A DNA stretch of 64,000 nucleotides from Thermoplasmatota archaeon (GCA_036251765.1 JAZANL010000025.1:667-64666); one strand, 5' to 3'; numbered from the stretch's first letter, positions 17,503 to 46,540 are shown. Notes: generated by a model from the letters alone, not told the origin. Numbers and translations are program-made.

Positions 17503-17576
17503 GGGCCTGTAGCTTAGTCAGGTAGAGCGCCGGGCTTTTAACCCGGTGGCCGGGGGTTCGAATCCCCTCAGGCCCG
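17503..17576 (+). tRNA. tRNA-Lys (anticodon UUU)
   Basis: Cloverleaf folded by hand: acceptor GGGCCUG/CAGGCCC, anticodon stem CCGGG/CCCGG, loop CUUUUAA, T-loop GUUCGAAUC. No encoded CCA. Confidence 0.85.
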
Positions 17577-17624
17577 CCTGATAGGACTGCAGGCTCACGG
17601 TTTTTCTGGGTCGGGGCGGCAAAC

Positions 17625-26929: not shown

Positions 26930-27889
26930 TTGGGTTTTCTTCAAAGTCACACCCTTCGCCCTAGATCTATGGAAGAGGCGTTGCGGGATCTTCTCAGAAT
27001 AAAAGCTGTTAACCTCCGCACCCAGAAAGTGGGCTCTGTAGCGCCCGGCTTCACCTTCCTGGGCGTCGCCAATGCAATCCCAGATTTGGAAATACACTCG
27101 AATGAGGTTTTTATTTGGCATGCCAAAGCCGGAATATTGCCAATCACTGAGAGTGAGATAATCAGGTTTGGAATGGATGCACCCAATGGCCTCAACATAA
27201 TCCTGAGTGAAAGGCCCGTTCATTCGGAATGCCACTCGGTAGCTACTTTCAATTTCAGAATTCTTGAACCCGAGGAAGTTTCCATGTGGGTCGGAAAGGC
27301 CGTTCTATCAGGAGATTTGATTGCAACCGCTAAGGATGAAGTAGAGGACCAAATGGAACGATTAGAACATGAAAAAAGAACCCAGAAACTGTTAGTTCTG
27401 AACCCAGTCATTGAGATCAAGGAATGGTCTTCACAACGTGGAATGGATGGTTTCTCTTCAACCCCCATTCTCCTAAGGGCACGACTGTGGTCGGTATCGG
27501 GGGAATTGAAAGGGCCCGATGGTGAAAGAGAATCCGGTGAATGGGTGATTCTTGAGGATCCGTGGTCAAAAACCGTGTCTCTAATGAATGATATTCACAA
27601 TCTCCGCCAGGCACCAATTCTGAGGACTATTGAACCACAGAATTCCAATTGGCTTACTCCTGATAGGATAAATCAAGAATTGTCCAAAGCCATCGAGGAA
27701 AGGAGGAGAGGGGGCTCAGGAGAGATCAGTGATTCAGGAACCGTCCGTAGCATGCTTCTACAGAAATGGTCTTTGGACTCCGAAAGAGCCAGAATTGCCG
27801 ATTGCAAGATAATGATTCCTGGATGGCTAATACACTTTGAATCCGAAAAGATTCTGCACGGACGTAACGGTCGCCTATACGATTACTAA
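26930..27889 (+). CDS. Hypothetical protein (319 aa) occupying the position where nusA/rps12/rps7 normally follow rpl30e
   Basis: Long ORF with ordinary composition. No recognisable motif. Start uncertain (internal Met at ~26969 is possible). Confidence 0.4.
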   Translation: MGFLQSHTLRPRSMEEALRDLLRIKAVNLRTQKVGSVAPGFTFLGVANAIPDLEIHSNEVFIWHAKAGILPITESEIIRFGMDAPNGLNIILSERPVHSECHSVATFNFRILEPEEVSMWVGKAVLSGDLIATAKDEVEDQMERLEHEKRTQKLLVLNPVIEIKEWSSQRGMDGFSSTPILLRARLWSVSGELKGPDGERESGEWVILEDPWSKTVSLMNDIHNLRQAPILRTIEPQNSNWLTPDRINQELSKAIEERRRGGSGEISDSGTVRSMLLQKWSLDSERARIADCKIMIPGWLIHFESEKILHGRNGRLYDY

Positions 27890-28749
27890 TTCCTCTGTAG
27901 CAGCATCATATCTTCATCCGAGAGGGTTTGACCCTCCATAAGCCTAGACATTAAGTCAGTAACTTCAACCCTCTCCGAATCCTGCTCTTTCTTTGTTCCT
28001 GATAACTTCAGAATATCCTGCATAGAATGAATACACCGGAGGGAGATGATGTATTTGTTGTGTAAATCATCAGCTTCACCCTTAGTTGCAGTTAGTCCTA
28101 GATGTTCTGAATTTGCCATCCCCCTGAGCCTATCAACTTCATTTGAAAGCTCCATCATCAGGGAGTGGGCCTCCTCTGACTTCTCGGAAGCGTCGGTTAC
28201 AGCATCATGTGCTTTCTGCTGCCTCTTCTCAGCTTGCTTCACTTCCTTCAGAACAGAAGAGCTACTCGCTTCCTCTTCCTTTTTGAGCAATTTAAATTCA
28301 GTCTGCAACCTCTTCATTGTCGCATAGAAGTCCCTCTCCTTCTTTGGGCTAATTTGACCTGTCTGATGCCGCCACTCCAGCTTATTCATCTGCTCGCGAA
28401 TTTTTCGGGATCCTGGGCCCTTCCTCTTTTTGCCTTTGTCTTGATCATTATTTTCAACCGAGCTCCTCAATTTAGCCCTAACTTCCTTTAATTCATTTGT
28501 CTTCTCGAGCCTAATCTTCCTAAGTTCTGCGACCCTACTATTTGCCTCATTCCGCAATGTCTTCTGCTTCTGCACTTCGGTGATCAATTGCTTCACTTGA
28601 CTATTTATCTCATTCCTCTTGTCTAATTGACCTCTGACTTTCACGTTGAGTTGGTCACGTCTTGTTTTGAAATCTGTCAGCTTATCACTAACCAACTGAG
28701 TTTTCGTTTCGAAAACTTGACTAAAATTCGACTGATTGAGTTCCAACAA
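27886..28749 (-). CDS. Coiled-coil protein, paralogue 3 of a tandem triplet
   Basis: 287 aa, K/E/R/Q-rich heptad-like sequence. Overlaps the upstream paralogue's 3' region. Confidence 0.5.
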   Translation of the reverse strand: MLELNQSNFSQVFETKTQLVSDKLTDFKTRRDQLNVKVRGQLDKRNEINSQVKQLITEVQKQKTLRNEANSRVAELRKIRLEKTNELKEVRAKLRSSVENNDQDKGKKRKGPGSRKIREQMNKLEWRHQTGQISPKKERDFYATMKRLQTEFKLLKKEEEASSSSVLKEVKQAEKRQQKAHDAVTDASEKSEEAHSLMMELSNEVDRLRGMANSEHLGLTATKGEADDLHNKYIISLRCIHSMQDILKLSGTKKEQDSERVEVTDLMSRLMEGQTLSDEDMMLLQRN

Positions 28750-28808: not shown

Positions 28809-29774
28809 CTATTCCCTTCTAGTGGCAACTCTACCTTGCCTACTCCCTCTTCTGGATACTCCAATCTTTCTGCTCTTTTTCCTAGGCCTGGACACCCTTT
28901 TCGAATCATCCGAACCTTCCTTTTTAGTTCCTGAAATTGTTGAGAGGCCCCCAGATTCTAGCAATGCCCCCAACTCATCTGTGCTAAGGGAGCCGCCCTT
29001 GGCCGCAATTCCACGAATGTCTTCTATGCTGGAGAAGTCTCCACGGCCAGAAGAGATTCTCGAATACCTCTCTACCCTTTTCAATTCCTTTCTCTCAACC
29101 TTAACTGATCTTTTCTTTGCCTCAATATTATTGTCGATTGATGAAATCCTCTTGCTGATTCTCCGTATCTCTTTCCTGCTGATTTTCTCGTCTTCAATTT
29201 CTACATTATCTTTGAGATCAGACACTACCTTGTCCGAGACTTCTTTGTTCTGATCCAACTTCGTAGAAATCTTCCTCATTTCACTAACTCTGTTGATATA
29301 ATCGGAATGAGCCTTTTCTGCCTCTTTCTTTTTCTTAATTGATGCCTGAATCTCGAAGAATCTGCTGAATGCAGTTAGCTCCGGATTTAGCATTGGTACA
29401 GCAGTCAGATCATTATCTATGCTGGTAAGGGATTGGAATGTATCACTCAACCATTCTTCTAGAATCTTTGACGGAGGCGGAACACACTTGTTGATTGAGT
29501 CCCGCTTCTCTCGTTGTTTTTGAGCATCCTTTCTTGATGCGTGAAATTCTCCTAGCAACTTCTTTCTCCCTGAATCAGAATGCTCGAAGCCTACTATTGC
29601 AGACCTCAAAGCCTTGACTATGTGCACTTGCTCCTTCCTCTCAGATTGAAGATCCCTAATCTCCCCTTCAATAGAGCGTAACATAGCCTTCTTTTCTTTG
29701 ACCATTCTACTGACTCCTTCTGCATCCAAAACCTTGAGGTCTTCCCAATTGTTGGTTTCAGGGCTGTCGCTCAT
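28809..29774 (-). CDS. Coiled-coil protein, paralogue 2, with basic C-terminal tail
   Basis: 321 aa, coiled-coil composition. C-terminal 'SRPRKKSRKIGVSRRGSRQGRVATRRE'. Start overlaps paralogue 1's stop by 4 nt. Confidence 0.5.
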   Translation of the reverse strand: MSDSPETNNWEDLKVLDAEGVSRMVKEKKAMLRSIEGEIRDLQSERKEQVHIVKALRSAIVGFEHSDSGRKKLLGEFHASRKDAQKQREKRDSINKCVPPPSKILEEWLSDTFQSLTSIDNDLTAVPMLNPELTAFSRFFEIQASIKKKKEAEKAHSDYINRVSEMRKISTKLDQNKEVSDKVVSDLKDNVEIEDEKISRKEIRRISKRISSIDNNIEAKKRSVKVERKELKRVERYSRISSGRGDFSSIEDIRGIAAKGGSLSTDELGALLESGGLSTISGTKKEGSDDSKRVSRPRKKSRKIGVSRRGSRQGRVATRRE

Positions 29775-30595
29775 TCTTCCTCACCAGCCGTTTTTTCCAC
29801 CCTTGCTTTGCTCTTCTTTGCGAAGGAGGAAAGCCCCCCTTCCTCGACATTCCTTCTAGCCCTTAGCAGGTCTCGGAAACCAGGACCGATTTGACCAAAT
29901 CCTTCTTTGAGCCTCTTTTCCCAGTGTGCAATCGCCTTGTCACTCTGAGAAAGAAGCTCCCTTGCTCTGTCTAATTGACTCCTCACTTCCTTTAATTCGC
30001 CCGATGCCTCTGACATCTTCTTGTACATTGGTTGGGCCTTAGAAACCGCTTCGATCATCTTGGCGTGTTCCTTATCCGCCTTTTTGAACAATGCAGACAT
30101 TTTCCGGCTCTTTTCTAGGTAGTTCGACATCTCGGGATTGGAATCCTTTCTATCTCTGACCCACTTGTCGTTCTCTGAAATAAGTGCCCTCCTTTTCTCC
30201 AGAAGCTTCCTCTCAGATTTGTGATCTAGGGCCGATGTCTGAATCTTATCCTCAATCTCCTCAATCTGCTCCAGAAGCTTCTGCTTCTTCCACTTGGGGT
30301 CTAGGCTAATCATTCCTCCTGAGCTAATCAGCTTCTCCCTGATTTCTTTGACCTCGGGAATCAATCCCCCAGCTTCAGTCTGAAACCGATCTCTCTCCTC
30401 CTTGAATGCTGCAACCTTGCTATTTGCATCATCGAACGCGTTTTTCATTCGCTCAACTTTTGGACTCAGTGAGTCTTCTTCAGCCTCTAGATTTCGTATC
30501 ACACCGGGAAGACTGTCTTTCAGCATAACCCTCCTTCTCAGGAGTTTCTCAGCAAGCTCACCAGGCTCAACCTCCATCAGTTCTGCAGTGTCCAT
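29771..30595 (-). CDS. Coiled-coil protein, paralogue 1 (first gene of the triplet)
   Basis: 274 aa, K/E-rich. 'ERKLLEKRRALISENDKW' segment resembles 'ENSLIKKLRSLISRRDEL' in the 34497 ORF. Confidence 0.5.
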   Translation of the reverse strand: MDTAELMEVEPGELAEKLLRRRVMLKDSLPGVIRNLEAEEDSLSPKVERMKNAFDDANSKVAAFKEERDRFQTEAGGLIPEVKEIREKLISSGGMISLDPKWKKQKLLEQIEEIEDKIQTSALDHKSERKLLEKRRALISENDKWVRDRKDSNPEMSNYLEKSRKMSALFKKADKEHAKMIEAVSKAQPMYKKMSEASGELKEVRSQLDRARELLSQSDKAIAHWEKRLKEGFGQIGPGFRDLLRARRNVEEGGLSSFAKKSKARVEKTAGEEE

Positions 30596-30649
30596 TTCGA
30601 TTCCGAGAAATCCCTCCTTTTTTTAGCAATACTGGACAATTTTCTGGGT

Positions 30650-32227
30650 TTGATTCATACGATGGCCATTCAAGCCGACTCCATGCGGGTCTTGCTAGGC
30701 AATACTATTGCCATGTCCATTGCAATAATATTGCTATCCAGCATGGCATCGCATTCATTCTCGACAAACCAACTAGAATTTAGCAGAATAGGCGCCAAGT
30801 ATTCCGACGAGCCAACTAACTCCACCAATTTCACATCATCGGGAGGATCTGGATTGGCAGTATCCGGTGAACCAGGTTACGTTGGTGACACTCTTACTGC
30901 CTCAATGATGGTGACAAATTCAGGAAACGTAAGCGCATCAGTCTCACTCCTTGTTGCTACAGTTTCTGGTGATGAGTCATTCGAGGGTGCCCACTTCCCT
31001 ATTTCTCCCGGATCTACCCGAGAGGTTTCCACTCCATTCAAATTGACCTCATCTGGTACTAATCATTTTGATTGGCGGGTATCTGTAGTTGAAGATCCTG
31101 ATAATTCGCAATTACAAGGAAATTTTTCTGTCGAGGTACTGCCCAGCCAGACACTAAACGTATCTATTGACTCAATAGAATGGACAAATTCTGACGGCTT
31201 GAATTTCGATGCCTCCATTTTCCTATCCAATGGAAGATCACGGGGAATCATTCTCGAGGCCTCTTCCGGACAAAATGGCGGCTACAAACTATTGCAGAGT
31301 TTACAAATCGACTCGAATCCAGGTAGAAGGACAATCTCTTTCGATTTGGGACATCCTTCAGCAGACGAGGTAATATTGGAGGCTATTCCAATCGCTTGGC
31401 AGCCTTCATCAGATTCCACTAATTTAACACAACTTAGCGTCACAGAGCCATTGGTAAACAAAGCCTCACTATCCGTAGATGCCACCTTCGACCCAGAAAT
31501 GCCCACCCCCGGAAGTAGAGTCATGGTCTCGATATCATTAGAAAATACGGGCAACTATCAAGCACAATCCGGCCATGTAAGGGTGATATCTTCATCCGAC
31601 CAGCAAATCCTCGCTGAGACAGCGGTTCAGTCAGTAATGCCTGGATCAATCTTCACAACCGAGGTGTCTTTGTCAGATTGGCCAAATAGCGATAGCGTCG
31701 GTTTAGAGCTGCAGTGGCTAACAAGCGGTACAAAATCTACGGACTACCTAACAATCGAGACCGAGAAGAGTCAGGAAGGATTGAATCTCCCCTTTGACTT
31801 AGTTGCAGCCGCCTATGGACTTCTAGCCGGAATACTAACAATTCTTGTGGGTACATTTGTCTGGCGCGCAGTTTCTACTCGAACTCCTTCTACTACCGAT
31901 TATAATCTCCGTGAAACAAAGGAATCTGCAAAATCACAGTCAAAACTGGAGAAGACGGAGATTCAATGTTCGTATTGTGACCAGAGACTGATGGTTCCTC
32001 ACAATCATGTGGGCGGAGTCCGCTGTCCGGCTTGCTCGATGGAATTCGTTGTCGGCCAAGTCGACCAGCCATCACATCCCGTAGTCCGCTCATCAGAAGA
32101 CACCCTTAATTGCCCAGAATGTCAACAGGCCTTGAGGGTGAAAATGGAGAATAGGCCAGTAATGTCTAGATGCCCGGTCTGCAAGACTCAGTTCATGGCC
32201 GAGGCCGAGGAGGATCAAGATGTCTGA
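30650..32227 (+). CDS. Membrane protein with a large extracellular domain and a cytoplasmic tandem zinc ribbon
   Basis: 525 aa. N-terminal TM/signal and ~380-aa S/T-rich exodomain. TM 'LVAAAYGLLAGILTILVGTFVW'. C-terminal 'CSYCDQ...CPACS' and 'CPECQQ...CPVCK'. Confidence 0.55.
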   Translation: MIHTMAIQADSMRVLLGNTIAMSIAIILLSSMASHSFSTNQLEFSRIGAKYSDEPTNSTNFTSSGGSGLAVSGEPGYVGDTLTASMMVTNSGNVSASVSLLVATVSGDESFEGAHFPISPGSTREVSTPFKLTSSGTNHFDWRVSVVEDPDNSQLQGNFSVEVLPSQTLNVSIDSIEWTNSDGLNFDASIFLSNGRSRGIILEASSGQNGGYKLLQSLQIDSNPGRRTISFDLGHPSADEVILEAIPIAWQPSSDSTNLTQLSVTEPLVNKASLSVDATFDPEMPTPGSRVMVSISLENTGNYQAQSGHVRVISSSDQQILAETAVQSVMPGSIFTTEVSLSDWPNSDSVGLELQWLTSGTKSTDYLTIETEKSQEGLNLPFDLVAAAYGLLAGILTILVGTFVWRAVSTRTPSTTDYNLRETKESAKSQSKLEKTEIQCSYCDQRLMVPHNHVGGVRCPACSMEFVVGQVDQPSHPVVRSSEDTLNCPECQQALRVKMENRPVMSRCPVCKTQFMAEAEEDQDV

Positions 32228-32879
32228 ATTCAGCGAAATCGAGGAGATGTATCTGAAGACCATATTCGAGGTTCACTCCGAGATGCCCGGGGAGATCGTA
32301 AAGACCACACAGATTGCTGATTTGATGGGCGTTTCTGCCGCCTCTGTTACAGAAATGGTCCAACGCCTAACCCAACGTGGAATGATCACTCACATACCAT
32401 ATCGCGGCTGCCGACTGACAACTGAGGGTTTTCAGTTAGCTGCCAGAGTTAAAAGACGAGAAGGCCTACTAGAGGTTCTTCTGAAAGACGTGATAGGTTT
32501 CAAGGGGGATGTGAAAGCTGTTGCATGCAAAATGGAGCATGCCGTAGGGATAGATCTGGAGGAAACTCTAGACCGCCTTCTTGGTTATCCGGAAACAACT
32601 GTCGGTGGAGGGAAGATCCCTAGTATCGAGCGTGATTTTGAAACATTGGGCGTTGGAACACTATTGCCATTGGGGCGACTACCTGAGGGATCATCAGCGG
32701 AAGTCGAGATGATTGTTGCAAACGATGTTGAAACCATAACTATCAATGATTGCGGTATCAGTATTGGAGCCCCGATCTCTGTTTCTGAGGGGAAGATAAC
32801 TACTGGTGGCATGGAAATCGGCTTATCTGATGGCATTTCAATGAAGATACTGGCCAGAATCACTTCAATGGGGGAGTAA
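32220..32879 (+). CDS. DtxR/MntR-family metal-dependent transcriptional regulator with C-terminal FeoA (SH3-like) domain
   Basis: N-terminal 'EMYLKTIFEV...' wHTH. Dimerisation/metal-site region 'RREGLLEVLL'. C-terminal FeoA-like domain. Start overlaps the upstream gene by 8 nt. Confidence 0.75.
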   Translation: MSEFSEIEEMYLKTIFEVHSEMPGEIVKTTQIADLMGVSAASVTEMVQRLTQRGMITHIPYRGCRLTTEGFQLAARVKRREGLLEVLLKDVIGFKGDVKAVACKMEHAVGIDLEETLDRLLGYPETTVGGGKIPSIERDFETLGVGTLLPLGRLPEGSSAEVEMIVANDVETITINDCGISIGAPISVSEGKITTGGMEIGLSDGISMKILARITSMGE

Positions 32880-32929
32880 GAATTTCTTCGAACGAGGACC
32901 CAACAAATTTCACCTCTCCAGAGAGTGAG

Positions 32930-34462
32930 TTGGAATCAATGGTAGAAACCCTGCAAATAGAGACTCCTTCGGCCCCTGAAATCAAAGGAATGGTCAAGGT
33001 CGAAGAAAGGGCCGAAACAGTCAACAAAAAGACACAATTGAAATCTAGAGAGACGATTCTTACAGGTATCGACGATATTCTGATCAGCCGCGGGGCTCGT
33101 TTGATATTATTCCTCCCCATCGCAGTAGTCGTCCTTTTCGGACTAGCCCAGTCATATCGTGGGTCCGTCCCTAGTTGGTGGGAAGGTGGAGTTCAGGAAC
33201 TATTCTTCGACCTCTCATTCTCAAATTCAGTCTACTTACTTGCTCTGGCCATCATGGTCACAGACCTAGTTCTACTGTTCGTTCTTCATTACCTGCTGTG
33301 GGTAACAAAGCGCATTTTCCAAATCGAAACCGATGAAATAGTCTCCACGGGAATTACCTTCCGAAGCTCGCATGGTTATAGTGAGATGAAAGCGGTAATT
33401 GATGGGGCATCTAACCAACTCAATCTTACTACTACCATGATGTTTCTTTCAACCGTTCTACTTGGCTTAGCATTGATTTTCTCATCAGATGATTCCCAAG
33501 GAATCCCCGTTCTGATTGCATTGTCTACCGGTGCTCTACTATCCGGACACAGTGTTTACATGGTTTCCAACCGACCAAGATTCAACACAGTCGAGCCATG
33601 GGGGCTGTTAGACGCATTCACCCCCCCAATGCATCCCGCATTGCTGAACAAACCATTCACAGATGTGATCAGATCACACGTCGACCCGCTGCTAGCCGTG
33701 CGCTTCTCAAAGTACGTCACTTCGTTTAGTGATAATCTCCAGAGCGGCGTAAGACTTTCTGAGTTGCAGGAATATCTTCTGCAGGTACTAGATATGTTCC
33801 GCTCTGGGTTGATAGAAGAGGATGAATTCCATGCAGCTCTTGGGGAATTAGTAGACACAAGAACCATTGATCAAATCATCAATCATCCAGAGCTTGGTGA
33901 AGAGACATTGGATAGGTTGCTTATGCATGCAAGGGAAAGATGCGCCCCCTTCTTCCGCCTTAACGACAGGATGAGGATGCACTTGTCCTCACACATGAAT
34001 GAGCAGATATGGTTTGATGTGGATATGGAGAACCTTACTCTCGGCCAGGCAAACCTATTCGCATTCGTCCTCAACCAGACAGATGAAACACAGGATCTTA
34101 TCCTCAGGGTACAGACTCCCGACTTCCGTCCAAACGAGTGCGTATATCGACTCAAAGCCGAACCCCACGCCGATGACAAATTATCTGGAAAGACCACTTA
34201 CGAGAGGGTTTCCTCCTCTGTGTCATCGTCGAGGATTGTTTGGCAGACCCTCATCCCATCCTCTATGGGCGATGCTACTGTAACAGTTAGGCTAGAGGAC
34301 TCCTCAGGAAACCTAATCTCAGGCAAGGTTCTAACTTCACAAGTAAGATCAGACCTCTTTACTCGTCTAAGGATGACTACTGGTGCAGTATTCATGTTCG
34401 GTGCCGCACTCGCCATCATTTCACCGATCCTACCCTTTGTAGCAAAGTTACTTGGCCTTTAG
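32930..34462 (+). CDS. Large membrane protein (N-terminal TM bundle, long soluble C-domain, C-terminal TM)
   Basis: 510 aa, hydrophobic helices at both ends. No diagnostic motif. Confidence 0.5.
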   Translation: MESMVETLQIETPSAPEIKGMVKVEERAETVNKKTQLKSRETILTGIDDILISRGARLILFLPIAVVVLFGLAQSYRGSVPSWWEGGVQELFFDLSFSNSVYLLALAIMVTDLVLLFVLHYLLWVTKRIFQIETDEIVSTGITFRSSHGYSEMKAVIDGASNQLNLTTTMMFLSTVLLGLALIFSSDDSQGIPVLIALSTGALLSGHSVYMVSNRPRFNTVEPWGLLDAFTPPMHPALLNKPFTDVIRSHVDPLLAVRFSKYVTSFSDNLQSGVRLSELQEYLLQVLDMFRSGLIEEDEFHAALGELVDTRTIDQIINHPELGEETLDRLLMHARERCAPFFRLNDRMRMHLSSHMNEQIWFDVDMENLTLGQANLFAFVLNQTDETQDLILRVQTPDFRPNECVYRLKAEPHADDKLSGKTTYERVSSSVSSSRIVWQTLIPSSMGDATVTVRLEDSSGNLISGKVLTSQVRSDLFTRLRMTTGAVFMFGAALAIISPILPFVAKLLGL

Positions 34463-34496
34463 GTCTCTTCAATAAGGGGGCACTATTCGCAATTGC

Positions 34497-35483
34497 ATGG
34501 TTAGCGACGATGGGGACTCGGATGACCTCCGAACTAGGTTGCACGCCATGGAGTCCAAGCTAACTAGAGTTCGTGGTCAGCGTGACTCCCACAATGACTC
34601 CGCAAAGAGGGCAGCAGATCAGAGAAACTCTGCTCAGAATAAAAGAAATGAGGTACAGGAATCAATCACATCCAGGATGGACGAACAGAAGAAGGTACGT
34701 GCACAGGCAAAGATCCACCAAGCAAGCCGCGATGAGATACAGCATAGCATCAGGGAGATCATCTCGCGAAAGAAGGGCAAGAAGGACCAAGGCCCGGGGA
34801 AGTCCGTAGTGATTCAACTATCGGAAACAGTTGGCGAGATAGAGAGGATAGAGGATCGGATAATGACCGACGGAGGCCTTTCTCTGGAGAAGGAAAACTC
34901 CCTCATCAAGAAACTTCGCTCATTAATTTCTAGAAGGGACGAACTAATACCTCATGTAGAGCAACAGCGCATAGTCTCTATCGATTTGAGTGATATGGAC
35001 GAATCTATTCAGAGATTGAGGGCTGAGGCAGATAACGAACACAAGTTAATGCTCGAGCAAAATAGCCTGGCAGATGAGATTTGGAATGAAATCAAACCCC
35101 TTTTCGAGGAAAGGGACTTTCTCAGAGGCGAAGGTGATAGGCTGCATGCCCTTTTCTTGGAGGAAAGGGGCAAGGCCGACGAGGCGCATCAGGGAGTGGT
35201 CGAACTCCTTTCCAAGGTGAATGAGATCCGGAGTGAGATACGCTCTCAGCACGAGGAGAGAGAAAGGATGGTAAACGACCATAACAAATCTGTAAGACAG
35301 GCTCTAAGAGGGCCCGATCAGAACGAAGAACTCGCAGAATCTCTATCTGACAAGCTCCTAGGAGGTCAATCAATCACCTTCGGAGGAATCGTTGCCACCG
35401 ATGCCAACGTTACTCAGGATGAAAAACCGAGGCCAAAGAGGAAATCGAGGAAGCTCGGTACTTCTCGTGGCAGGAAGAGCTAG
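34497..35483 (+). CDS. Coiled-coil protein, fourth paralogue, with basic C-terminal tail
   Basis: 328 aa, K/E/R/Q-rich. C-terminal 'KPRPKRKSRKLGTSRGRKS'. Confidence 0.5.
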   Translation: MVSDDGDSDDLRTRLHAMESKLTRVRGQRDSHNDSAKRAADQRNSAQNKRNEVQESITSRMDEQKKVRAQAKIHQASRDEIQHSIREIISRKKGKKDQGPGKSVVIQLSETVGEIERIEDRIMTDGGLSLEKENSLIKKLRSLISRRDELIPHVEQQRIVSIDLSDMDESIQRLRAEADNEHKLMLEQNSLADEIWNEIKPLFEERDFLRGEGDRLHALFLEERGKADEAHQGVVELLSKVNEIRSEIRSQHEERERMVNDHNKSVRQALRGPDQNEELAESLSDKLLGGQSITFGGIVATDANVTQDEKPRPKRKSRKLGTSRGRKS

Positions 35484-36491
35484 TCACCATCCTCTCTCGT
35501 CCATCTTGACCTCGAGAGTATCTATTTCTAGGCCTGGCATTGCCTCTCCAACCATATCACAAGCTTCTGCCACTACTGCTGAGTCCTCGAAGTGATGTGT
35601 TGCAAGGACAATGGCTTCAGCGGTTCTTGTCGGATCAGAACTCTTGAAAATCCCGGATCCAACGAAAATCCCATCCATTCCATGCTTCATCATCAATGAC
35701 GCGTCTGCTGGGGTCGCTATCCCACCAGCAGAAAAAGTCACCACGGGCAGACGCCCTAATTGCGCTACCTCATCCAAAACGGATGCCACCTCTTTCCTCA
35801 ATTCTTCTAGGGTTCCGAATGGAGTATTTTGTACTGAGGCACCTATTTCAGATGATTTTTCCAGCCTTCTATAACCATCCAGGATATTCTCTACTATATC
35901 CTCCCGAGCCTTTGAGTTAGATTCCCTAGTGGTCTCAATTTCGGTTGCTAGGAGTCTGGCGTGCTTTACAGCACTCACAACGTTGCCAGTACCAGCCTCG
36001 CCCTTCGTCCTGATCATTGCAGCCCCCTCTGCCACCCTCCGAACAGCCTCTCCAAGGCTAGTGCACCCGCAGACGAATGGAATCGTGAAGTCGGCTTTTG
36101 GGATGTGGTAGTAAGGATCAGCAGGGGTAAGAACTTCCGACTCGTCGATCATGTCTACTCCGAGTGTTTCCAATACCCTGGCCTCCTCATCGTGGCCAAT
36201 TCTAGCCTTAGCCATGACTGGAATACTAGTCGTCTCGATGATTTCCTTGATCAGCTTGGGGTGGCTCATCCTCGCGACTCCCCCAGAAGATCGAATATCT
36301 GCTGGAACCCTCTCCAGAGCCATTACGGAGACGGCCCCAGCATCCTCTGCAACATGGGCCTGTTCCGGAGTCACTACATCCATCACTACTCCACCCTCCT
36401 GCATCTTCGCAAAGCCCCGCTTGAGAAGCTCTGTTCCATGCCTCATATCGCCTAGCTCAATCCTATGCGGCATACGGATTCCTCTCGGCAT
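35484..36491 (-). CDS. pdxS: Pyridoxal 5'-phosphate synthase, synthase subunit PdxS (Pdx1)
   Basis: 335 aa TIM barrel. '[17 protein letters not shown]' and '[12 protein letters not shown]' PdxS blocks. Confidence 0.9.
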
Positions 36492-36523
36492 GTATTCATG
36501 AACCTATTTGGCGAACCAATTTC

Positions 36524-36802
36524 CTAACTATCAGCCAGAACAGGGGAATCACCCTCTGCTATTGGAAGGTCAGGTGACTCTACCTCATTCTTCTCCAACC
36601 ATTCCATTTCCTCGTCCGGTAGATCAGTATCAGCATAGATCGCCTCTTCTGGACATTCTGGAATGCATGCCGCGCAGTCTATGCACTCATCGGGATCTAT
36701 CACCAAATATTGTTCGGCTTCCCTAAACGCTTCTACTGGGCAGACATGTACGCAATCTTGGTATTTGCACATAACACATGCACTGGTTACTACGTGGGTC
36801 AT
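36524..36802 (-). CDS. Ferredoxin (2-cluster, 7Fe/8Fe type) with acidic C-terminal extension
   Basis: '[18 protein letters not shown]' and '[16 protein letters not shown]'. Confidence 0.8.
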
Positions 36803-36843
36803 ATAGGTAGAACTCCCATGTAATCAGCATATGAATTCTTGTA

Positions 36844-37314
36844 TTATTCGTCAATCAGGCCAATTATCAAATCCTCAGCAACCTCAATCGATTTCTGACC
36901 AGGGTATACCTCCAACTTGAATCTGCCCTTGGCAACAGGATCGTTCGAATTCCGTGATACAACGCCACGTCCTTGTACAAGTTTGTCCAATCTCAGTCTG
37001 ACGTGAAAGAACTTGTCTTCGTCCACTCTGCTGTCTAGCCCGCCTTCTAGTACGTAAACCAATGAGTCCCTCTCTACTTTCGCCAATGATGATAGTGCCT
37101 CCCTCCCCTTCATCTTTACACTGATTGTTTGCATGGGGGCCCCCAATGTCGAGTTTTCCTTTTTAACGACAATCTCCGATAACCCCCCACAAAGCCAACT
37201 AAGAGAATCCTCTATCACCCTCGTTTCGTCAACGGCACTTGCATGTATCCTCCATTCGCCGCCATGTAGGCTCATGCCCATCGCAGTTGATGACGTGACT
37301 TCAATGCGTTCCAA
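36844..37314 (-). CDS. Conserved hypothetical protein (156 aa)
   Basis: Good ORF with balanced composition. No motif recognised. Confidence 0.45.
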   Translation of the reverse strand: MERIEVTSSTAMGMSLHGGEWRIHASAVDETRVIEDSLSWLCGGLSEIVVKKENSTLGAPMQTISVKMKGREALSSLAKVERDSLVYVLEGGLDSRVDEDKFFHVRLRLDKLVQGRGVVSRNSNDPVAKGRFKLEVYPGQKSIEVAEDLIIGLIDE

Positions 37315-37406
37315 AGACGTTGCTTACAATAGCATTCCGTTCAAATACTGGTTGCAGGTCGGACGGCTCGCAAACGGGGTAGCCCCCGCAATATGGAGAC
37401 ATCTCA

Positions 37407-38303
37407 ATGGCCAAAGGAGCATCAGCGAGAGCCGCGGCTCGTAGGCAGAAGGACAAGTGGAAGGCCAAGAGATGGTACTCAATACGAGCCCCTAGGAATC
37501 CATGGTCGTTCAAGGTAATAGGCGAGACAATTGCCGAGGAAGAGGACATGCTAGTAGGCAGGCCATTCGAGATTATGCAGAATGAGCTCGACGGCGACTT
37601 CACCAAGATGCATGTAAAGATCAAATTCCGAATCAAGGAAGTTGTCGGAAACGACGCCATCACTGAGTTCGTCGGCCATGATGTCATGAAGGACTTCGTC
37701 AGGAGGCAGATAAGGAGGGACAGGGGGAAAATTGACGATACCATTGATGTCGTTACCGAAGATGGCTACTTTGTCAGAATCAAGCCCTTCATCGTAACCA
37801 GGTCAAGCGTCAAGGCTAGTCAGAAGAATGAGTCCAGGAGCGTAACCAGGAACGAGGTAGTCAAGTTCTGCGCCCAATCTACGTGGATCAATGTACAGAA
37901 GGCACTCATGGACGGATCGTTGGAGGAGACCGTCTCCAAGGCTATATCCAAGATTCAACCTGTTCGTGCGGTCTTCTTCAGGCGCAGCCAACTTATTCAG
38001 GACGGTGTTGTGGTAGACGACGGGCCAACTCTGGAGGAGATCAAGGCCCAGGAGAAGGAGGCAAGGGAGCAAGAAGAGATGACTCCAGACGAAGATGATG
38101 AGGTCGCGGCTGAGCAACCGAATGAGGATGGTCCAGACGAGGATCACGAGGCTGAATCTGAAGACGAAGGACAAGACGTTGAGAGTCCCGCTGATGTCGA
38201 CTACGAGTCGATGACCGTTGCACAGCTGAAGGAACTACTGAAGAAAGACGGCAAGCCAGTGTCAGGTAAGAAGGCCGACCTCATATCTAGATTATCGGAG
38301 TGA
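37407..38303 (+). CDS. rps3ae: Ribosomal protein S3Ae (eS1) with acidic linker and C-terminal SAP domain
   Basis: N-terminal 'MAKGASARAAARRQKDKWKAKRWYSIRAP' is the typical S3Ae start. C-terminal 'MTVAQLKELLKKDGKPVSGKKADLISRL' matches the SAP motif. Confidence 0.85.
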   Translation: MAKGASARAAARRQKDKWKAKRWYSIRAPRNPWSFKVIGETIAEEEDMLVGRPFEIMQNELDGDFTKMHVKIKFRIKEVVGNDAITEFVGHDVMKDFVRRQIRRDRGKIDDTIDVVTEDGYFVRIKPFIVTRSSVKASQKNESRSVTRNEVVKFCAQSTWINVQKALMDGSLEETVSKAISKIQPVRAVFFRRSQLIQDGVVVDDGPTLEEIKAQEKEAREQEEMTPDEDDEVAAEQPNEDGPDEDHEAESEDEGQDVESPADVDYESMTVAQLKELLKKDGKPVSGKKADLISRLSE

Positions 38304-38307
38304 GGAG

Positions 38308-39069
38308 ATGCCCCGCATAGCGGTGATTTGTGGCACTGGGATGAGCGCATTCTCGACCACTCTGGGAGAATCGACATCTTCTTCTCGTAGCTCAATGATA
38401 GCAGAGTCTATGTGGGGCGAAGTACCAGTTTCCGTGGTTAAACTAGACCTCGGCCATGTTTTCGTCATAGATCGGCATCACTCAGAAGGCGAATCAAGAA
38501 CCCCGCCTCATGCAATCGAGCACCGTGCGATCGTGAAAGCAGCCACTAGTTGCTCACCAGATCTAATCGTTAGCGTGAACTCGGTTGGTTCGATGACAGA
38601 ATCCATGCCTCCGGGTACAGTTGGAATTGCAAGTGGAATACTAGACCTTTCCATCAAGCCATGGACATTTCACGATGATGATGCGACTCACGCTGATCGG
38701 ACTCGACCATTCGATCAAAGGTACATCTCGGTTTGCGAGGCAACCCTCATGGAGAGACAGGGCACCTCACCGACGGGGTTGATTGTGGCACAGTGCGTAG
38801 GGCCACAGTTCGAGAGCATATCCGAGATCGATGCACTAGAGACGCTAGGGGCACATCTAGTCGGGATGACCCTTGGTCCAGAGCAGAGGCTAATATCAGA
38901 GACAGGAATCCCCCATGTCTCGTTGCCATGCTCTTCGAACTGGGCCGCAGGAAGGACACCAGGGGAACCCGATGCAGAAATCAATCACGAGGAGGTCGAC
39001 GAGATGGCATCTCAGATGCGAGAATTGGTTTCATCGTGCATTCTGGCGCTTCTTGAAGACATCAATTAG
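38308..39069 (+). CDS. Purine-nucleoside / 5'-methylthioadenosine phosphorylase family protein (divergent)
   Basis: 253 aa. 'IAVICGTGMS' glycine-rich N-terminus and 'LVGMTLGPEQRLISETGI' resemble PNP/MTAP family II blocks. Confidence 0.55.
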   Translation: MPRIAVICGTGMSAFSTTLGESTSSSRSSMIAESMWGEVPVSVVKLDLGHVFVIDRHHSEGESRTPPHAIEHRAIVKAATSCSPDLIVSVNSVGSMTESMPPGTVGIASGILDLSIKPWTFHDDDATHADRTRPFDQRYISVCEATLMERQGTSPTGLIVAQCVGPQFESISEIDALETLGAHLVGMTLGPEQRLISETGIPHVSLPCSSNWAAGRTPGEPDAEINHEEVDEMASQMRELVSSCILALLEDIN

Positions 39070-39108
39070 TGCAACTACCTTGATGGAGCCCCCCTCACCT
39101 GTATTGCC

Positions 39109-39495
39109 ATGGTGGAAAGGCTGAGTGTAGATGATTGGTTGCAGGTGGAGCACGGTGAGGAGTCCGATGGATCTTGGTCGACAATGATGGCCAGAGTCGC
39201 AAAGTTCCACCATAAGCACAAGTTCGAAGACGACCAGAACCATGGACATGACATGGGATTCCGGATTGCCCTCACTGTGGAGGAGCTCGGAGAACTCTCT
39301 GCTGCGATAACTAAGGGAAAGCCAGACGAGGAGGCGGCTGAGGAACTGGCCGATCTTCTGATACTGATTCTAGGGCATTCTCTCGCAATGAAAGTAGACC
39401 TAGAGGCGGAATTCCACAAGAAGATGGACAAGGTCATGACTAGGAAGGCTCGAACAGGGAAGCTCGGAATCAGAGTCACAGAGTACACTGATTAG
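39109..39495 (+). CDS. MazG-like nucleotide pyrophosphohydrolase (small all-alpha NTP-PPase)
   Basis: 'VEELGELSAAI' and 'EELADLLILIL' EExxE motifs. Confidence 0.6.
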   Translation: MVERLSVDDWLQVEHGEESDGSWSTMMARVAKFHHKHKFEDDQNHGHDMGFRIALTVEELGELSAAITKGKPDEEAAEELADLLILILGHSLAMKVDLEAEFHKKMDKVMTRKARTGKLGIRVTEYTD

Positions 39496-39680
39496 TGGAA
39501 TTAGCAAGAATTAGTGTGCCTATCAACACCCATTTTAGTAGAAATTACTAGGTGTAGATAGGTACACCGGCTTTTCTGAAAAAGTGCGTTTTTAGCCGTT
39601 TTTCGCAGGTTTAGTACCTTCGCTATTATATACTCCAGAGAAACGAGACGAAGTCACTCGTTATACGAGGAGATGAAAAA

Positions 39681-40301
39681 ATGAACGTAGATATGAATGC
39701 AATGAAAGCAGAACTAGGTGGCGCCTTTGTGCTGTCGTGGATGGTGTTTGGAATGGGTCTGGGCACGTTGGAGGGAGCAGTCGCTCTCGCTGTCGTGTGG
39801 ATGGCCTTTTCCGGCGCTCACGTGCTTCCCGTTGTTACCTGGAGTCACATGATGACAGGGGACATGGGCGACACAGAAGGCAACTGGATGCCCAATGGGA
39901 TGCGCTTAGTGGCGCAGGCCCTAGGTGCGATGCTAGCCCTAATGATGGTTACCAAATTTGGTGATCATGAGACTGGGTGGTCGGCAACTGACATGTGGAT
40001 AGCTGACCTGGACGGAGACGCAGTATTGGGAGCAGCGCTTGGTGATACTGGAATTATCGGTATGATAGCAGCAGGTGCAATTTGGTGGCAGATCCACACC
40101 AGGTGCGACAGCGTTTGGGCTAGCGCCTTCGGAATGATGGTTCTCGGCGGGGCGATGACCCTTACCGGGGCCCACGAGATGGGAGCATCATTGGCCAGCT
40201 TCGGTGACGGCATTGTCGACACACTGGTAAACTGGATCTTTGATGGTCTGTTCGTAGGCCTAGGTGCCTTTATTGGCGTAAAGATCGATCAAAGTCTTTG
40301 A
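39681..40301 (+). CDS. MIP/aquaporin-like membrane protein with degenerate NPA boxes
   Basis: 206 aa. 'SGAHVLPVVTW' aligns to the MIP 'SGAHxNPAVT' box but NPA is LPV. The second half is Gly/Ala-rich TM. Confidence 0.45.
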   Translation: MNVDMNAMKAELGGAFVLSWMVFGMGLGTLEGAVALAVVWMAFSGAHVLPVVTWSHMMTGDMGDTEGNWMPNGMRLVAQALGAMLALMMVTKFGDHETGWSATDMWIADLDGDAVLGAALGDTGIIGMIAAGAIWWQIHTRCDSVWASAFGMMVLGGAMTLTGAHEMGASLASFGDGIVDTLVNWIFDGLFVGLGAFIGVKIDQSL

Positions 40302-40335
40302 TGTCATAGTGTATCAACACAAAAACACACGAAAG

Positions 40336-40364
40336 CAGGTCGGGGGGAAAATCTCCCCGGCCTG
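40336..40364. terminator. Strong 13-bp hairpin (3-nt loop) between convergent genes; candidate bidirectional terminator
   Basis: CAGGTCGGGGGGA-AAA-TCTCCCCGGCCTG (two G.U pairs). Lies between the stop of the MIP-like gene (+) and the stop of tsr3 (-). No long T-run. Confidence 0.35.
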
Positions 40365-40394
40365 TACACGAAATACCGCCTAGTGACTACTCGC

Positions 40395-40946
40395 TCAACT
40401 ATTGAAGAAATCATTTTCGATTTCAGTAATTTCCTCTCTGGAATAGGCATTACCGTATGCTTCCAGAGGTTTCCTGTTCAGATCCATGAACTGTTCCCCG
40501 AATTCGAATGGCTGTAGAATTCTAGTAGCCTGTTCCTGATAGCCTAGTATGGCCAGAGTAGCTGCCAATGCCTCCACAGAAGACAACCTACCTACCCTTC
40601 CCCAGGAAACGGGGTTTGCAGCTAGCAGTGCTGGCAATTTCCTCCCTACTAGTTTTGTTTTTCCAGATATTTCCTCCAATGACTCATCGATCCTCTTCCA
40701 TGAGCAGTCTAGAACTACAATAGAAGCACCTATCGAGATGAGGGTGCGATCTTCGGGTGCGAGTGTTGTTGGTGATTTCGGATCTAGGAGATACCCCCTC
40801 CTAGGTGCTCTTGATATCGATTCGTGGAATTCTACTAGACCATTGGCATGCATCTTCCTAGCAGTACACTTCCGTGGATCATCCTGATCGAGATGAATCA
40901 CATGGAGGGGGACCTCTTCCACGAAACTATCTCCTCGATCTAGCAC
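40395..40946 (-). CDS. tsr3: 16S rRNA aminocarboxypropyltransferase Tsr3 (DUF367)
   Basis: 'DQDDPRKCTARKM' matches the conserved DPKKCT block of Tsr3. Confidence 0.75.
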   Translation of the reverse strand: MLDRGDSFVEEVPLHVIHLDQDDPRKCTARKMHANGLVEFHESISRAPRRGYLLDPKSPTTLAPEDRTLISIGASIVVLDCSWKRIDESLEEISGKTKLVGRKLPALLAANPVSWGRVGRLSSVEALAATLAILGYQEQATRILQPFEFGEQFMDLNRKPLEAYGNAYSREEITEIENDFFNS

Positions 40947-41574
40947 CAGACCGGGAGACTCCTATCCTTCTCCCTTTCTTCTTCTTACTCTTCTTCTTGG
41001 GTTCGGACTCGGGTGAATTATTCGCATCCGAGATGGTCATCTGCCTATCATTATCCGAAGCTACGATTGTATGGGCATGTGAAACTGACTCCACGAATAG
41101 CTTGATGTCTAACGCCTTCGCGAATTTGTTCAGGAGGGAGTCAGTCGGCCTAATGCCATTCTCGGTCTTCTGAATGGTGGCAATCTTTTCGTTCATCCGT
41201 TTGGCAAGCTCTTCCTGTGAGAGCCCTCTATGCTTCCTAGCATTCCTAATTCGCGAATGGAAGTCATTTGCTAGTTCAACCTCATCCTTAGTCATGATAT
41301 CTACTCCAGAGATCCCTTTCCCTGAGACTGAGCTTTGATTCTCAGTTGGGGGCAGATGTGCCGGAGTCCTCACCGCTTCGACAATTAGTCCCATGGATTG
41401 GATGCACCTATTGCAGCACTCGAGCATCGAATTATTTCCAACGGGTTTCGAAATCTTCGCCCTCTTTGTGCTAATTCCCTCAGCCCCACAGAGCTCGCAT
41501 GCACCCATGCATTGCCGTCTCGATTGAACATCATAGTCCTTCGCAGGAGTCATAAGTATCCGTTTAGTGTGCAC
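40927..41574 (-). CDS. mbf1: Archaeal multiprotein bridging factor 1 homologue (zinc ribbon + HTH_XRE) with basic C-terminal tail
   Basis: 'CELCG...CCNRC' zinc ribbon. 'LSQEELAKRMNEKIATIQKTENG' HTH. C-terminal 'KKKSKKKKGRRIGVSRSGARSRR'. The true start is probably the internal Met (~41508 or 41553). Confidence 0.65.
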   Translation of the reverse strand: MHTKRILMTPAKDYDVQSRRQCMGACELCGAEGISTKRAKISKPVGNNSMLECCNRCIQSMGLIVEAVRTPAHLPPTENQSSVSGKGISGVDIMTKDEVELANDFHSRIRNARKHRGLSQEELAKRMNEKIATIQKTENGIRPTDSLLNKFAKALDIKLFVESVSHAHTIVASDNDRQMTISDANNSPESEPKKKSKKKKGRRIGVSRSGARSRR

Positions 41575-41577: not shown

Positions 41578-42810
41578 ATGGCATCAGAGGCGAATGAGAA
41601 ACCAACTGGTAACGATCCCCTCGAAAACACAAACTCCCACAAAGACGCTCTAGACCGTCTTTCCAAGGACTACCGCGAGCTCTCCGACAAGGCTCAGCAG
41701 TTATTGACAGAGAAGCTATTCCTGGAGAACGAGCTAACACAACTCAAGAAACGCTCGAATAGGCTCGAGGAAGAGATAAGCAACATTCGAACTCCTCCGT
41801 TAATCATCGGTTACATACAGGACATGGTCAACGAACAGGCGGTTGTCAGGAGTTCCAATGGCACGGTATTTCTAGTGTCAATAAATCGCCGTTTGGATAG
41901 TAAAAAAATCAAACCAGGCACCAGGGTGGCCCTAAATCAGGACACTCTATCCGTAGTGGAGATTCTCTCCGATTCTTGGGATCCGTTAGTTAGCAATGCA
42001 GAGATCATCGACACCCCGGACGTGGACTATTCATCAATAGGAGGCCTTGATAAGCAAATTAAGGAGCTAAAGGAGGCAATAGAGCTCCCTTTCGAAAATC
42101 CTTCAGCATTCTCTGACTTCGGGATAGATCCACCAAAGGGAGTCCTCCTTACCGGGCCCCCGGGAACTGGTAAGACAATGCTCGCCAAGGCAGTTGCAAA
42201 CTCTACCAATGCTGCATTCCTGGGATTGGTCGGTGCAGAACTAGCTCAGAAGTACATCGGCGAGGGGGGAAGAATGGTCAGAGAGCTTTTCGAAATGGCG
42301 AGACAGAAGTCCCCATCGATTATCTTCATCGATGAAATAGACTCCATAGGTTCGAAGCGTCTCGACGTCGCTACATCCGGTGACCGTGAGGTTCAGAGGA
42401 CCTTGATGCAACTCCTTTCTGAGCTTGACGGTTTCGAGAGTCTGGATAATGTCAAGGTTATCGCCGCAACCAATCGCCCTGAACTGCTCGATGCTGCTCT
42501 TCTTCGACCTGGTAGATTTGACAGAATAATCGAGATACCTATTCCAGATCTGGAAGCTAGGGAGGCCATCTACTCTGTACACACCAGTTCCATGCCAATG
42601 GCCAAGGGTTTGGATAACAGAACATTGGCTTCAATGTCAGATGGTTTCAGTGGAGCCGAAATCAAGTCTGCTGTTGTTGAAGCCGGAATATCAGCAATAT
42701 CTAGCGGGCGCAAGTCTGTGAATAAGTCCGACTTCATAGGGGCGATAAAGAAGGTCGAGGACAACAGGAAAGGCCCCACAGAAACCAACTCTGAGGGGAT
42801 ATACGGATAA
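41578..42810 (+). CDS. pan: Proteasome-activating nucleotidase PAN (AAA+ ATPase)
   Basis: N-terminal coiled coil, OB domain, Walker A 'GPPGTGKT', Walker B 'IIFIDEID'. Start set to the internal Met 'MASEANE'. Confidence 0.9.
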   Translation: MASEANEKPTGNDPLENTNSHKDALDRLSKDYRELSDKAQQLLTEKLFLENELTQLKKRSNRLEEEISNIRTPPLIIGYIQDMVNEQAVVRSSNGTVFLVSINRRLDSKKIKPGTRVALNQDTLSVVEILSDSWDPLVSNAEIIDTPDVDYSSIGGLDKQIKELKEAIELPFENPSAFSDFGIDPPKGVLLTGPPGTGKTMLAKAVANSTNAAFLGLVGAELAQKYIGEGGRMVRELFEMARQKSPSIIFIDEIDSIGSKRLDVATSGDREVQRTLMQLLSELDGFESLDNVKVIAATNRPELLDAALLRPGRFDRIIEIPIPDLEAREAIYSVHTSSMPMAKGLDNRTLASMSDGFSGAEIKSAVVEAGISAISSGRKSVNKSDFIGAIKKVEDNRKGPTETNSEGIYG

Positions 42811-42846
42811 GCAAAATATCTTGACGAGCAGTGACTTCGAACGTCC

Positions 42847-43884: not shown

Positions 43885-43887
43885 AAA

Positions 43888-44508
43888 TTGAATGAAGGGT
43901 ACAAAGAGGTTCTTCGCTCGATCGCCTCGTCTGAACCTACACCGGGGGGTGGTTCAGTTGCCGCCCTTGCTCTGGCGCACGCGCACTCTCTTGCAATGAT
44001 GGTGGCAAGGCTAACTGAGGGCAAGAAGAAGTGGGCAGATGGCCATGAAACAGCTCAATCTGTCATTTCTGAATCACAAGCTGGTCTAGCAGAATCGCTT
44101 CGCCTAGCTGAGATTGATGCGGGGGCATTTGAGTCAGTAATGTCTGCCTATCGCCTTCCCAGGGAGACCGAGGAAGAAAAGGAAATCAGAAAGAAATCGA
44201 TTCGTGATGCGACCATAGGAGCTGCCGAGGCCCCACTTGCTACGGCTTCCTCTGCAAGGAGGCTTTTGTCTAGCCTGGAAAGGCTATGTGAATCATGCAA
44301 TGAAAATGCTCTAACCGATCTAGCATCATCATCAGAACTTTGCCTTTCTGCAGTAAAAATCGCTGCAATGAACGTACGGATAAATCTCGATTTTATCGAT
44401 GGAGATGACGTTGACAGACTTTCATCTCAAATAGATAAAGTCGTTCAACAATCAACTACTTCTGCGGAGGCAATTGCCTTGAAGGTTAACGAAAGGTTGG
44501 GTTGGTGA
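43888..44508 (+). CDS. Formiminotetrahydrofolate cyclodeaminase (FtcD C-terminal-type, stand-alone)
   Basis: 'SEPTPGGGSVAALALAHAHSLAMMV' cyclodeaminase motif. 3-nt gap after the transferase gene. Confidence 0.7.
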   Translation: MNEGYKEVLRSIASSEPTPGGGSVAALALAHAHSLAMMVARLTEGKKKWADGHETAQSVISESQAGLAESLRLAEIDAGAFESVMSAYRLPRETEEEKEIRKKSIRDATIGAAEAPLATASSARRLLSSLERLCESCNENALTDLASSSELCLSAVKIAAMNVRINLDFIDGDDVDRLSSQIDKVVQQSTTSAEAIALKVNERLGW

Positions 44509-46520: not shown

Positions 46521-46540
46521 CCGAATAGCCTCGCAGTCAT

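Follow-up and report, generated by a model that had tools for sequence, protein, structure and literature searches.

A conserved basic C-terminal tail shared by MBF1 and DUF7121-type coiled-coil proteins in marine Poseidoniales archaea

What could proteins built on unrelated domains have in common, when they end in the same short peptide? This question is raised by a 64-kb stretch of DNA from a Thermoplasmatota archaeon (hereafter the window, meaning the whole stretch that was analyzed), whose host lineage is Marine Group II (MGII), Poseidoniales, and which the names of close homologues place in the family Thalassarchaeaceae. A sequence-only reading of the window had pointed out that a homologue of MBF1 and two coiled-coil proteins, here called CC_B (28809-29774, minus strand) and CC_D (34497-35483, plus strand), share a basic C-terminal tail, and had proposed this tail as a portable targeting or anchoring peptide. 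All three open reading frames (ORFs) and their tails are present as described, and the domains to which the tails are attached are indeed unrelated, with a protein made of a zinc ribbon and a helix-turn-helix (HTH) on one side and coiled-coil proteins on the other. CC_D belongs, and CC_B plausibly belongs, to DUF7121/COG1340, a family that is conserved in Halobacteria, methanogens and Thermoplasmatota without a known function; full-text literature searches returned no paper on DUF7121, one passing mention of COG1340 and nothing on the tail. A selected peptide common to MBF1 and these coiled-coil proteins would be the first hint from sequence that both act on one and the same target, if only in this lineage.

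Occurrence and conservation of the shared tail

The tail consists of a run of lysine and arginine residues followed by [ILF]-G-[VT]-S-R-x-G-x-R. It is encoded at 28812-28883 (minus strand) in CC_B (residues 298-321, RKKSRKIGVSRRGSRQGRVATRRE; supported by column entropy and codon comparisons), at 35430-35480 (plus strand) in CC_D (RPKRKSRKLGTSRGRKS), where it is shorter, and at 40930-40998 (minus strand) in MBF1 (KKKSKKKKGRRIGVSRSGARSRR; supported by conservation among homologues, codon comparisons and disorder in AlphaFold2 (AF2) models). The motif is longer than originally described, as MBF1 and CC_B have K-K-x-R-[KR]-[ILF]-G-V-S-R-x-G-x-R-x-x-R in common, and CC_B runs six residues past the string quoted earlier (...QGRVATRRE). 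In a six-frame translation of the window, the pattern [KR][IL]G[VT]SR has exactly 3 matches, all of them in ORFs of >200 amino acids and at a distance of 4, 7 or 13 residues from the stop. Given the amino-acid frequencies of the window, the chance expectation is 0.12 matches per window and ~0.002 in the C-terminal positions of ORFs of >=100 amino acids; 200 shuffles gave a mean of 0.15 matches and a maximum of 2. CC_B, CC_D and MBF1 are also the only real-looking ORFs of >=100 amino acids in the window with a C-terminus of >=35% Lys/Arg, and no other real-looking gene with a Lys/Arg-rich C-terminus was found in the related loci that we compared, ~430 kb in total. One further ORF flagged in the window for such an end (9094-9453) was judged spurious. 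A metagenomic CC_B-like fragment (P0243) carries a tail that is a hybrid of the MBF1 and CC_B types.

Across more than 250 Poseidoniales orthologues, the core [KR][KR]-[ILF]-G-[VT]-S-R-x-G-x-R is nearly unchanged and the ~20-residue linker upstream of it is freely variable. In other words, the core is position-specific, and the deflating explanation that the sequence-only reading had itself considered, generic Lys/Arg-rich low complexity with no positional conservation, does not describe it. For CC_B, which has 310 homologues, the 120 matches listed (61-98% identical) show [RK]K[KR]x[RK][KR][IL]GVSR[RK]G[SG]R[QKR]G..A[ST]RR[ED] hardly altered, and column entropy averages 0.68 bits over the tail, as compared with 2.47 bits over the linker and 0.89 bits over the helical body. 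For MBF1, sampled through the 120 protein clusters listed and 80 metagenome loci, nearly all full-length sequences end in KKKGR[RK][ILF]GV[ST]R[STK]G[AS]R[STN]RR, down to 53% identity. The close-clade orthologues of CC_D end in R[KR]LGT[ST]RG[RG]K[SRKN], in which R-[KR]-L-G-T-[ST]-R-G is invariant. Strong purifying selection acts on the tail as a peptide: at the motif codons (G, V/T, S, R, G and R), synonymous differences occur in 50-75% of pairs and nonsynonymous differences in 0%, and at the linker codons nonsynonymous differences occur in 65-93% of pairs. The three tail-coding DNAs are no more alike than their common residues demand and differ at synonymous sites, which rules out recent gene conversion as well as a conserved DNA or RNA element. 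The linker between each host's normal C-terminus and the motif measures 20-24 residues; an argument that this length acts as a “molecular ruler” was dropped, because an unrelated acidic linker in the ribosomal protein S3Ae is almost equally stable at 56-62 residues.

In a deeper Poseidoniales clade (loci L019-L028, ~50% identity), both coiled-coil tails are present in altered form. CC_B ends there in RR-I-S-P-[VAM]-RRG-ARKTR or RK-I-G-A-A-RGG-PRKTR and CC_D in RR-[NSK]-I-x-[AP]-RRG-[RK]. In general terms, a run of basic residues is followed by a single hydrophobic residue, two or three small ones, an arginine, any residue and a glycine. The serine has been lost in parallel from the CC_B and CC_D tails of this clade, which hints at a common constraint, as far as two families in two clades can indicate. 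A profile built from the tail alone and searched against 1.84 billion representative proteins gave six matches at E<=1e-3, all of them MBF1 or CC_B-type fragments; this search is insensitive, since it missed CC_D and full-length CC_B, and therefore leaves room for other tail-bearing families. The same profile found no match in viral contigs. The idea of a portable anchoring peptide thus agrees with the anatomy of the tail, in which a linker that is variable and disordered leads up to the motif, and with the selection acting on it, but wide portability is not borne out, as the carriers found are MBF1 and two DUF7121-type proteins.

The proteins that carry the tail

The MBF1 gene (40927-41574, minus strand) was assigned to archaeal MBF1 (aMBF1; zinc ribbon plus HTH_3) on the basis of Pfam, TIGR00270 and alignment to 2mez. 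M23, at 41508, is probably the real start, because homologues of the protein, 186-209 amino acids long, begin with MGACELCG. The HTH_3 domain (PF01381) scores 48.7 bits (cutoff 23), the protein aligns with the MBF1/EDF1 structures 2mez (S. solfataricus) and 1x57, and the TIGR00270 score of 88.7 bits, under the equivalog cutoff of 110, marks it as a divergent member. The N-terminal zinc ribbon can be read in the sequence as two cysteine pairs (CELC...CCNRC); the homologues have PF26602 (HVO_2718_N), and AF2 places a beta ribbon at residues 10-32. In the AF2 model as a whole, built like that of CC_B from an alignment of orthologues, the zinc ribbon and the HTH precede a low-confidence region at residues 137-193 (predicted local distance difference test (pLDDT) below ~55).

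Canonical archaeal MBF1 has a conserved [TS]-[LIVMF]-G-[DENI] element followed by a few residues to the end (PMC3062615), as in Natrinema, where the protein ends in TLGDVVKRKD. The corresponding element in the window is T-I-S-D (41026-41037, minus strand), which falls on the TLGD of 2mez and is invariant in MGII; the published pattern is not satisfied by MGII MBF1, as serine replaces glycine. Beyond T-I-S-D, MGII MBF1 continues for 32 more residues, namely 20 variable residues and the basic motif. A second departure concerns the linker between zinc ribbon and HTH, which is Lys/Arg-rich in all canonical aMBF1 (PMC3062615) but not in MGII, where its Lys/Arg content averages 8.6% (range 5-18%, 64 homologues).

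The coiled-coil carriers belong to a set of four genes. CC_C (29771-30595), CC_B and CC_A (27886-28749) form a tandem on the minus strand, in which the stop of CC_C overlaps the start of CC_B by 4 nt, and CC_D lies ~5 kb off; this arrangement is kept in both Poseidoniales clades sampled. We compared them with a set of 105 canonical DUF7121 proteins (within P0272-P0391) from Halobacteria, methanogens, Methanoperedens and Thermoplasmatales, which are ~286 amino acids long, end in GEKL[ST]TEDLM.LQ[KR][SA]G[LY]L and have no basic tail. The nearest to canonical is CC_A, which scores 57.5 bits with Pfam and 124 bits with a custom canonical DUF7121 hidden Markov model (HMM), with an alignment reaching the C-terminus, and which ends in TLSDEDMMLLQRN with no basic tail. 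CC_C (Pfam 42.5 bits; custom HMM 55 bits) has a conserved end of its own, GG-x-SSFAKK...GEEE. CC_D (328 amino acids), with orthologues in 28 Poseidoniales genomes, is assigned to DUF7121 by PF23435 at 33.9 bits (gathering threshold 29) and by the custom HMM at 72 bits, and its canonical C-terminal element is degenerate and extended.

CC_B (321 amino acids) is a divergent DUF7121-like protein that AF2 models as all-helical, with residues 278-321 disordered at pLDDT <50. A search of the Protein Data Bank (PDB) with this model using Foldseek returned generic coiled coils only (SMC arms, SH3BP5, chemoreceptors), with E > 0.01 and a template modeling (TM) score < 0.35. The canonical end of the family is recognizable in CC_B as GGSLSTDELGALLESGGL, after which come 43 extra residues; the hypervariable linker (residues 281-297; 28884-28934, minus strand) lies between GGSLSTDELGALLESGGL-STI and the tail. 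CC_B has no Pfam match and no match to the custom canonical DUF7121 HMM at E<=10, and its profile-profile links by hhalign are weak (E 4e-4 to CC_D, collinear; E 9e-5 to the C-terminal helix of CC_A). Accordingly, the description of the two carriers as coiled-coil paralogues holds for CC_D, which is clearly DUF7121, but for CC_B it is unproven, because neither Pfam nor the canonical profile matches it; we consider CC_B a plausible DUF7121 paralogue. As canonical MBF1 and canonical DUF7121 of other archaea do not have the tail, it is an add-on specific to this lineage, attached beyond the point where the proteins of each family normally end.

Two further observations concern the ends of these proteins. 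The near-invariant C-terminus of canonical DUF7121 spans Halobacteria, methanogens and Thermoplasmatales, and its conservation suggests that it may have a docking role of its own. Here, DUF7121 is expanded to four genes whose C-termini are, respectively, canonical, a basic motif, a second basic motif and GG.SSFAKK...GEEE; the conservation of this four-gene set in both Poseidoniales clades suggests that its products may form a hetero-oligomeric assembly.

Outside MGII, we read the genomic context of DUF7121 from P0290 and from loci L112 (4666-6864), L114 (561-6861) and L031 (4150-6747). A Methanocellales protein fuses DUF7121 to the phosphoserine phosphatase SerB, and it is because of this fusion that DUF7121 is frequently mis-annotated as “phosphoserine phosphatase”. 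The gene directly follows that for serine hydroxymethyltransferase in a metagenome-assembled genome of Thermoplasmatales, and lies ~4 kb from a SerA-like phosphoglycerate-dehydrogenase gene in another genome, so a link with serine metabolism is possible as far as gene context can tell. In Natronorubrum, DUF7121 adjoins a gene of the tubulin/FtsZ family.

Candidate targets of the tail

Over 20-27 residues, the tails have a net charge of +9 to +12, a Lys/Arg content of 44-52% and a combined Gly, Ser and Pro content of 30-35%, and their hydrophobicity averages -0.7 to -1.0, where the membrane helices of MinD and FtsA have -0.3. They are, like the arginine-rich motif, short disordered segments high in arginine and lysine. 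The AT-hook core R-G-R-P or G-R-P is absent from the three tails and their orthologues, the tails contain isolated R-x-G and no RGG of the kind found in an RGG/RG box, and an amphipathic membrane helix of the MinD/FtsA type is not seen, the tail region being non-helical in the AF2 models.

We tentatively favor the possibility, while stopping short of calling it probable, that the tail is an arginine-rich anchor on a tether and binds RNA, with the small ribosomal subunit or mRNA as the likeliest site. RNA is suggested because the composition of the tail is that of arginine-rich RNA-binding peptides and of ribosomal-protein tails, and a site on the small subunit because this is where MBF1/EDF1 acts. 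MBF1/EDF1 is described as acting close to the mRNA entry site of the small subunit (PMC6301793, PMC7486125), and in archaeal MBF1 it is the HTH, together with the linker next to it, that binds the ribosome (the passage in PMC6301793 that cites Blombach 2014). The ribosome is also supported by the neighbors of the MBF1 gene: a Tsr3-like rRNA-maturation gene directly downstream (40395-40946, minus strand; Pfam Ribo_biogen_C 130 bits, synteny), the gene for S3Ae (eS1; 37407-38303, plus strand) and the divergently oriented ORF for the proteasome-activating nucleotidase PAN (41578-42810, plus strand), whose homologue in locus L029 has 410 amino acids with AAA and Prot_ATP_ID_OB domains. In such a mechanism, the tail would hold MBF1 on this RNA target and would substitute for the ribosome-binding Lys/Arg-rich linker of canonical aMBF1, a role that it may have taken over because the linker of MGII MBF1 is only ~9% Lys/Arg. 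On the coiled-coil proteins, the tail would direct its hosts to the same RNA or ribosome surface as MBF1.

Several points weigh against an RNA anchor. What speaks for binding to RNA or the ribosome is only the composition of the tail together with the known activity of MBF1, and the invariant glycine and serine and the fixed hydrophobic residue would equally suit a specific docking site. The exact tail sequence is not essential, because the motif differs in the deeper clade (RR-I-S-P-V-RRG-ARKTR in CC_B; RR-N-I-Q-A-RRGR in CC_D). The MBF1 gene of that clade was not found within 10 kb of CC_D, where synteny breaks after MazG, and a metagenome scan for it returned only clades with the GVSR tail. 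Canonical DUF7121 genes elsewhere occur without ribosomal context, next to genes of serine metabolism or of the tubulin/FtsZ family, and the tail profile matched no chain among the PDB sequences.

A more far-reaching version, which we regard as rather unlikely, is that a whole C-terminal module of ~45 residues, in which a T-[ILF]-[GS]-[DG] element is followed by a linker of ~20 residues and then by the basic motif [ILF]-G-[VT]-S-R-x-G, was transplanted from MBF1 onto the DUF7121 coiled-coil proteins and serves as a portable docking peptide for a conserved ribosome site. The extension of CC_D starts with I-T-F-G-G-I-V (35385-35405, plus strand), which resembles the Y-T-L-G-D-V-V of canonical MBF1, and in the deeper clade with I-T-L-G-G; that of CC_B starts with S-T-I-S, as compared with T-I-S-D in MGII MBF1. 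In MBF1, CC_B and CC_D alike, 20-23 residues separate this element from the basic motif. This likeness is short and was defined post hoc, and the published MBF1 pattern matches none of MBF1, CC_B and CC_D. We also observed that the CC_D string is nearer to the canonical T-L-G-D motif than is the T-I-S-D of MBF1 in the same genome. If this version were true, the enigmatic conserved element at the C-terminus of archaeal MBF1 would be a peptide of this portable, ribosome-docking kind, and DUF7121/COG1340 would act at the same site in MGII, perhaps as a scaffold where ribosomes have stalled or collided.

An alternative is that the tail docks on one specific protein partner, for which the three carriers would compete or on which they would assemble. 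Invariant glycine and serine with a fixed hydrophobic residue at set spacing are typical of peptide-in-groove motifs, and the joint shift of the deeper-clade coiled-coil tails, in which G-[VT]-S-R gives way to x-[PAV]-[AV]-R, would fit co-evolution with a single partner, although it concerns two families in two clades only. Candidate partners are the acidic linker of ~60 residues before the SAP domain of S3Ae, which is kept with that domain in both clades, the PAN unfoldase, and the conserved acidic GEEE end of CC_C, encoded in the same operon. The net charge of the tails is above that of a typical docking motif, however, and since the S3Ae linker is hypervariable it could offer electrostatic binding only and not a specific site; we consider docking on a protein somewhat unlikely overall. 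Binding to DNA or chromatin, with MBF1 as a transcription cofactor, the coiled-coil proteins as SMC-like components of the nucleoid and the tail as a DNA clamp, strikes us as unlikely. It has in its favor that basic disordered tails take DNA as readily as RNA, that an RNA polymerase operon lies just upstream, that the coiled-coil proteins weakly match SMC arms, and that MBF1 was first described as a TBP-bridging co-activator, with DNA contact through basic regions proposed for aMBF1 (PMC3062615). Yet the likeness to SMC, at the Foldseek values given above, is that of a generic coiled coil, the tail has no AT-hook core (GRP), and the experiments cited on archaeal MBF1 indicate the ribosome rather than TBP or DNA.

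Two explanations remain. A polybasic stretch with a hydrophobic residue can bind acidic lipids, and PAN, whose gene adjoins that of MBF1, acts on unstructured termini, so the tail might be a polybasic membrane anchor or a degradation tag for the PAN-proteasome. The hydrophobicity of the tails and their Gly/Ser/Pro content are unlike those of the MinD and FtsA helices, however, a degron would not require invariant glycine and serine positions, and MBF1 and PAN are probably also adjacent in lineages with tail-less canonical MBF1, all of which makes this explanation very improbable. Least credible of all, and largely refuted, is compositional convergence of Lys/Arg-rich ends with no common function. 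Its basis is that the flanks are simple Lys/Arg runs, that CC_D has only a core of 6-8 residues in common with the others and that the motif drifts in the deeper clade; against it stand the 3 matches observed where 0.002 were expected, the invariance of the non-basic core residues (I/L/F, G, V/T, S and G) despite heavy synonymous turnover, and the fact that no other gene of the window or the related loci has a basic C-terminus.

Gene neighborhood and relation to known systems

Several other features of the locus deserve mention. In S3Ae, a strongly acidic, variable linker of ~60 residues leads to a SAP domain at the C-terminus (Pfam SAP 41 bits). Both Poseidoniales clades have retained this fusion, and the linker measures 56-62 residues in them. 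SAP domains are unusual on ribosomal proteins, and the acidic linker is a conceivable electrostatic partner of the basic tails. Between the coiled-coil genes, two conserved membrane-protein genes (30650-32227 and 32930-34462, both plus strand) flank a DtxR-type repressor; one product combines a CARDB domain with a transmembrane helix and with two zinc ribbons on the cytoplasmic side, the other has 510 amino acids and no Pfam match, and the gene order is kept in both clades. Tsr3 and MazG are separated in the window by an unannotated 206-amino-acid membrane protein (39681-40301) and in some related genomes by a rhodopsin gene (L029, 11211-12035). Beside PAN lies a histidine-utilization cluster (42835-48067, plus strand) with formiminotransferase, cyclodeaminase and urocanase, whose counterpart in L029 (2750-8706) includes a homologue of histidine ammonia-lyase. 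An ORF bearing RNA polymerase Rpb5's C-terminal domain (archaeal RpoH; 17526-18212, plus strand) encodes 228 amino acids, with the domain confined to residues 128-224; either the real start is further downstream or the protein has an N-terminal extension of ~125 residues like that of eukaryotic Rpb5.

The motif is confined to uncultivated marine archaea, which limits the scope of the function that we infer for it. Within this scope, the tail offers a concrete reagent for finding its target, as a 24-residue peptide with obvious point mutants.

Among known systems, the closest in place is the C-terminal extension of canonical MBF1, which occupies the same position in the same protein and can include a few basic end residues, as in Natrinema; MGII differs in adding a variable linker of 20 residues and a conserved basic motif of 12 residues, and the added part occurs on non-MBF1 proteins as well. 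The coiled-coil proteins compare most directly with DUF7121/COG1340 (PF23435), as CC_A, CC_C and CC_D score over the Pfam threshold and CC_B, which lies between two members, keeps the C-terminal helix motif; unlike the DUF7121 of other archaea, they comprise four paralogues with remodeled ends, two of which bear the basic tail. Their general layout recalls the COG1579-type zinc-ribbon proteins such as H. pylori HP0958, in which a long coiled-coil hairpin is followed by a small C-terminal nucleic-acid-binding module. Both have a helical hairpin and then a short basic C-terminal element, but the proteins studied here lack a zinc ribbon and have no detectable homology to the COG1579 type, and the JGI name given to the homologues is an automatic annotation.

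In their chemistry, the tails are most like RNA-binding peptides of the arginine-rich type (BIV Tat, HIV Rev, lambda N) and like the extended basic tails found on ribosomal proteins, which are likewise short and disordered and consist of Arg/Lys to 45-50%, with interspersed glycine and serine and one or two hydrophobic residues; the arginine-rich motif of BIV Tat is close to the tails in both composition and hydrophobicity. The differences are that there is no sequence homology, that the tails are C-terminal on cellular archaeal proteins and known from sequence alone, and that they are conserved as a defined motif across families. As a basic disordered C-terminal motif, the tail would thus be a known sort of feature, and what appears to be new is the link that it makes between MBF1 and DUF7121.

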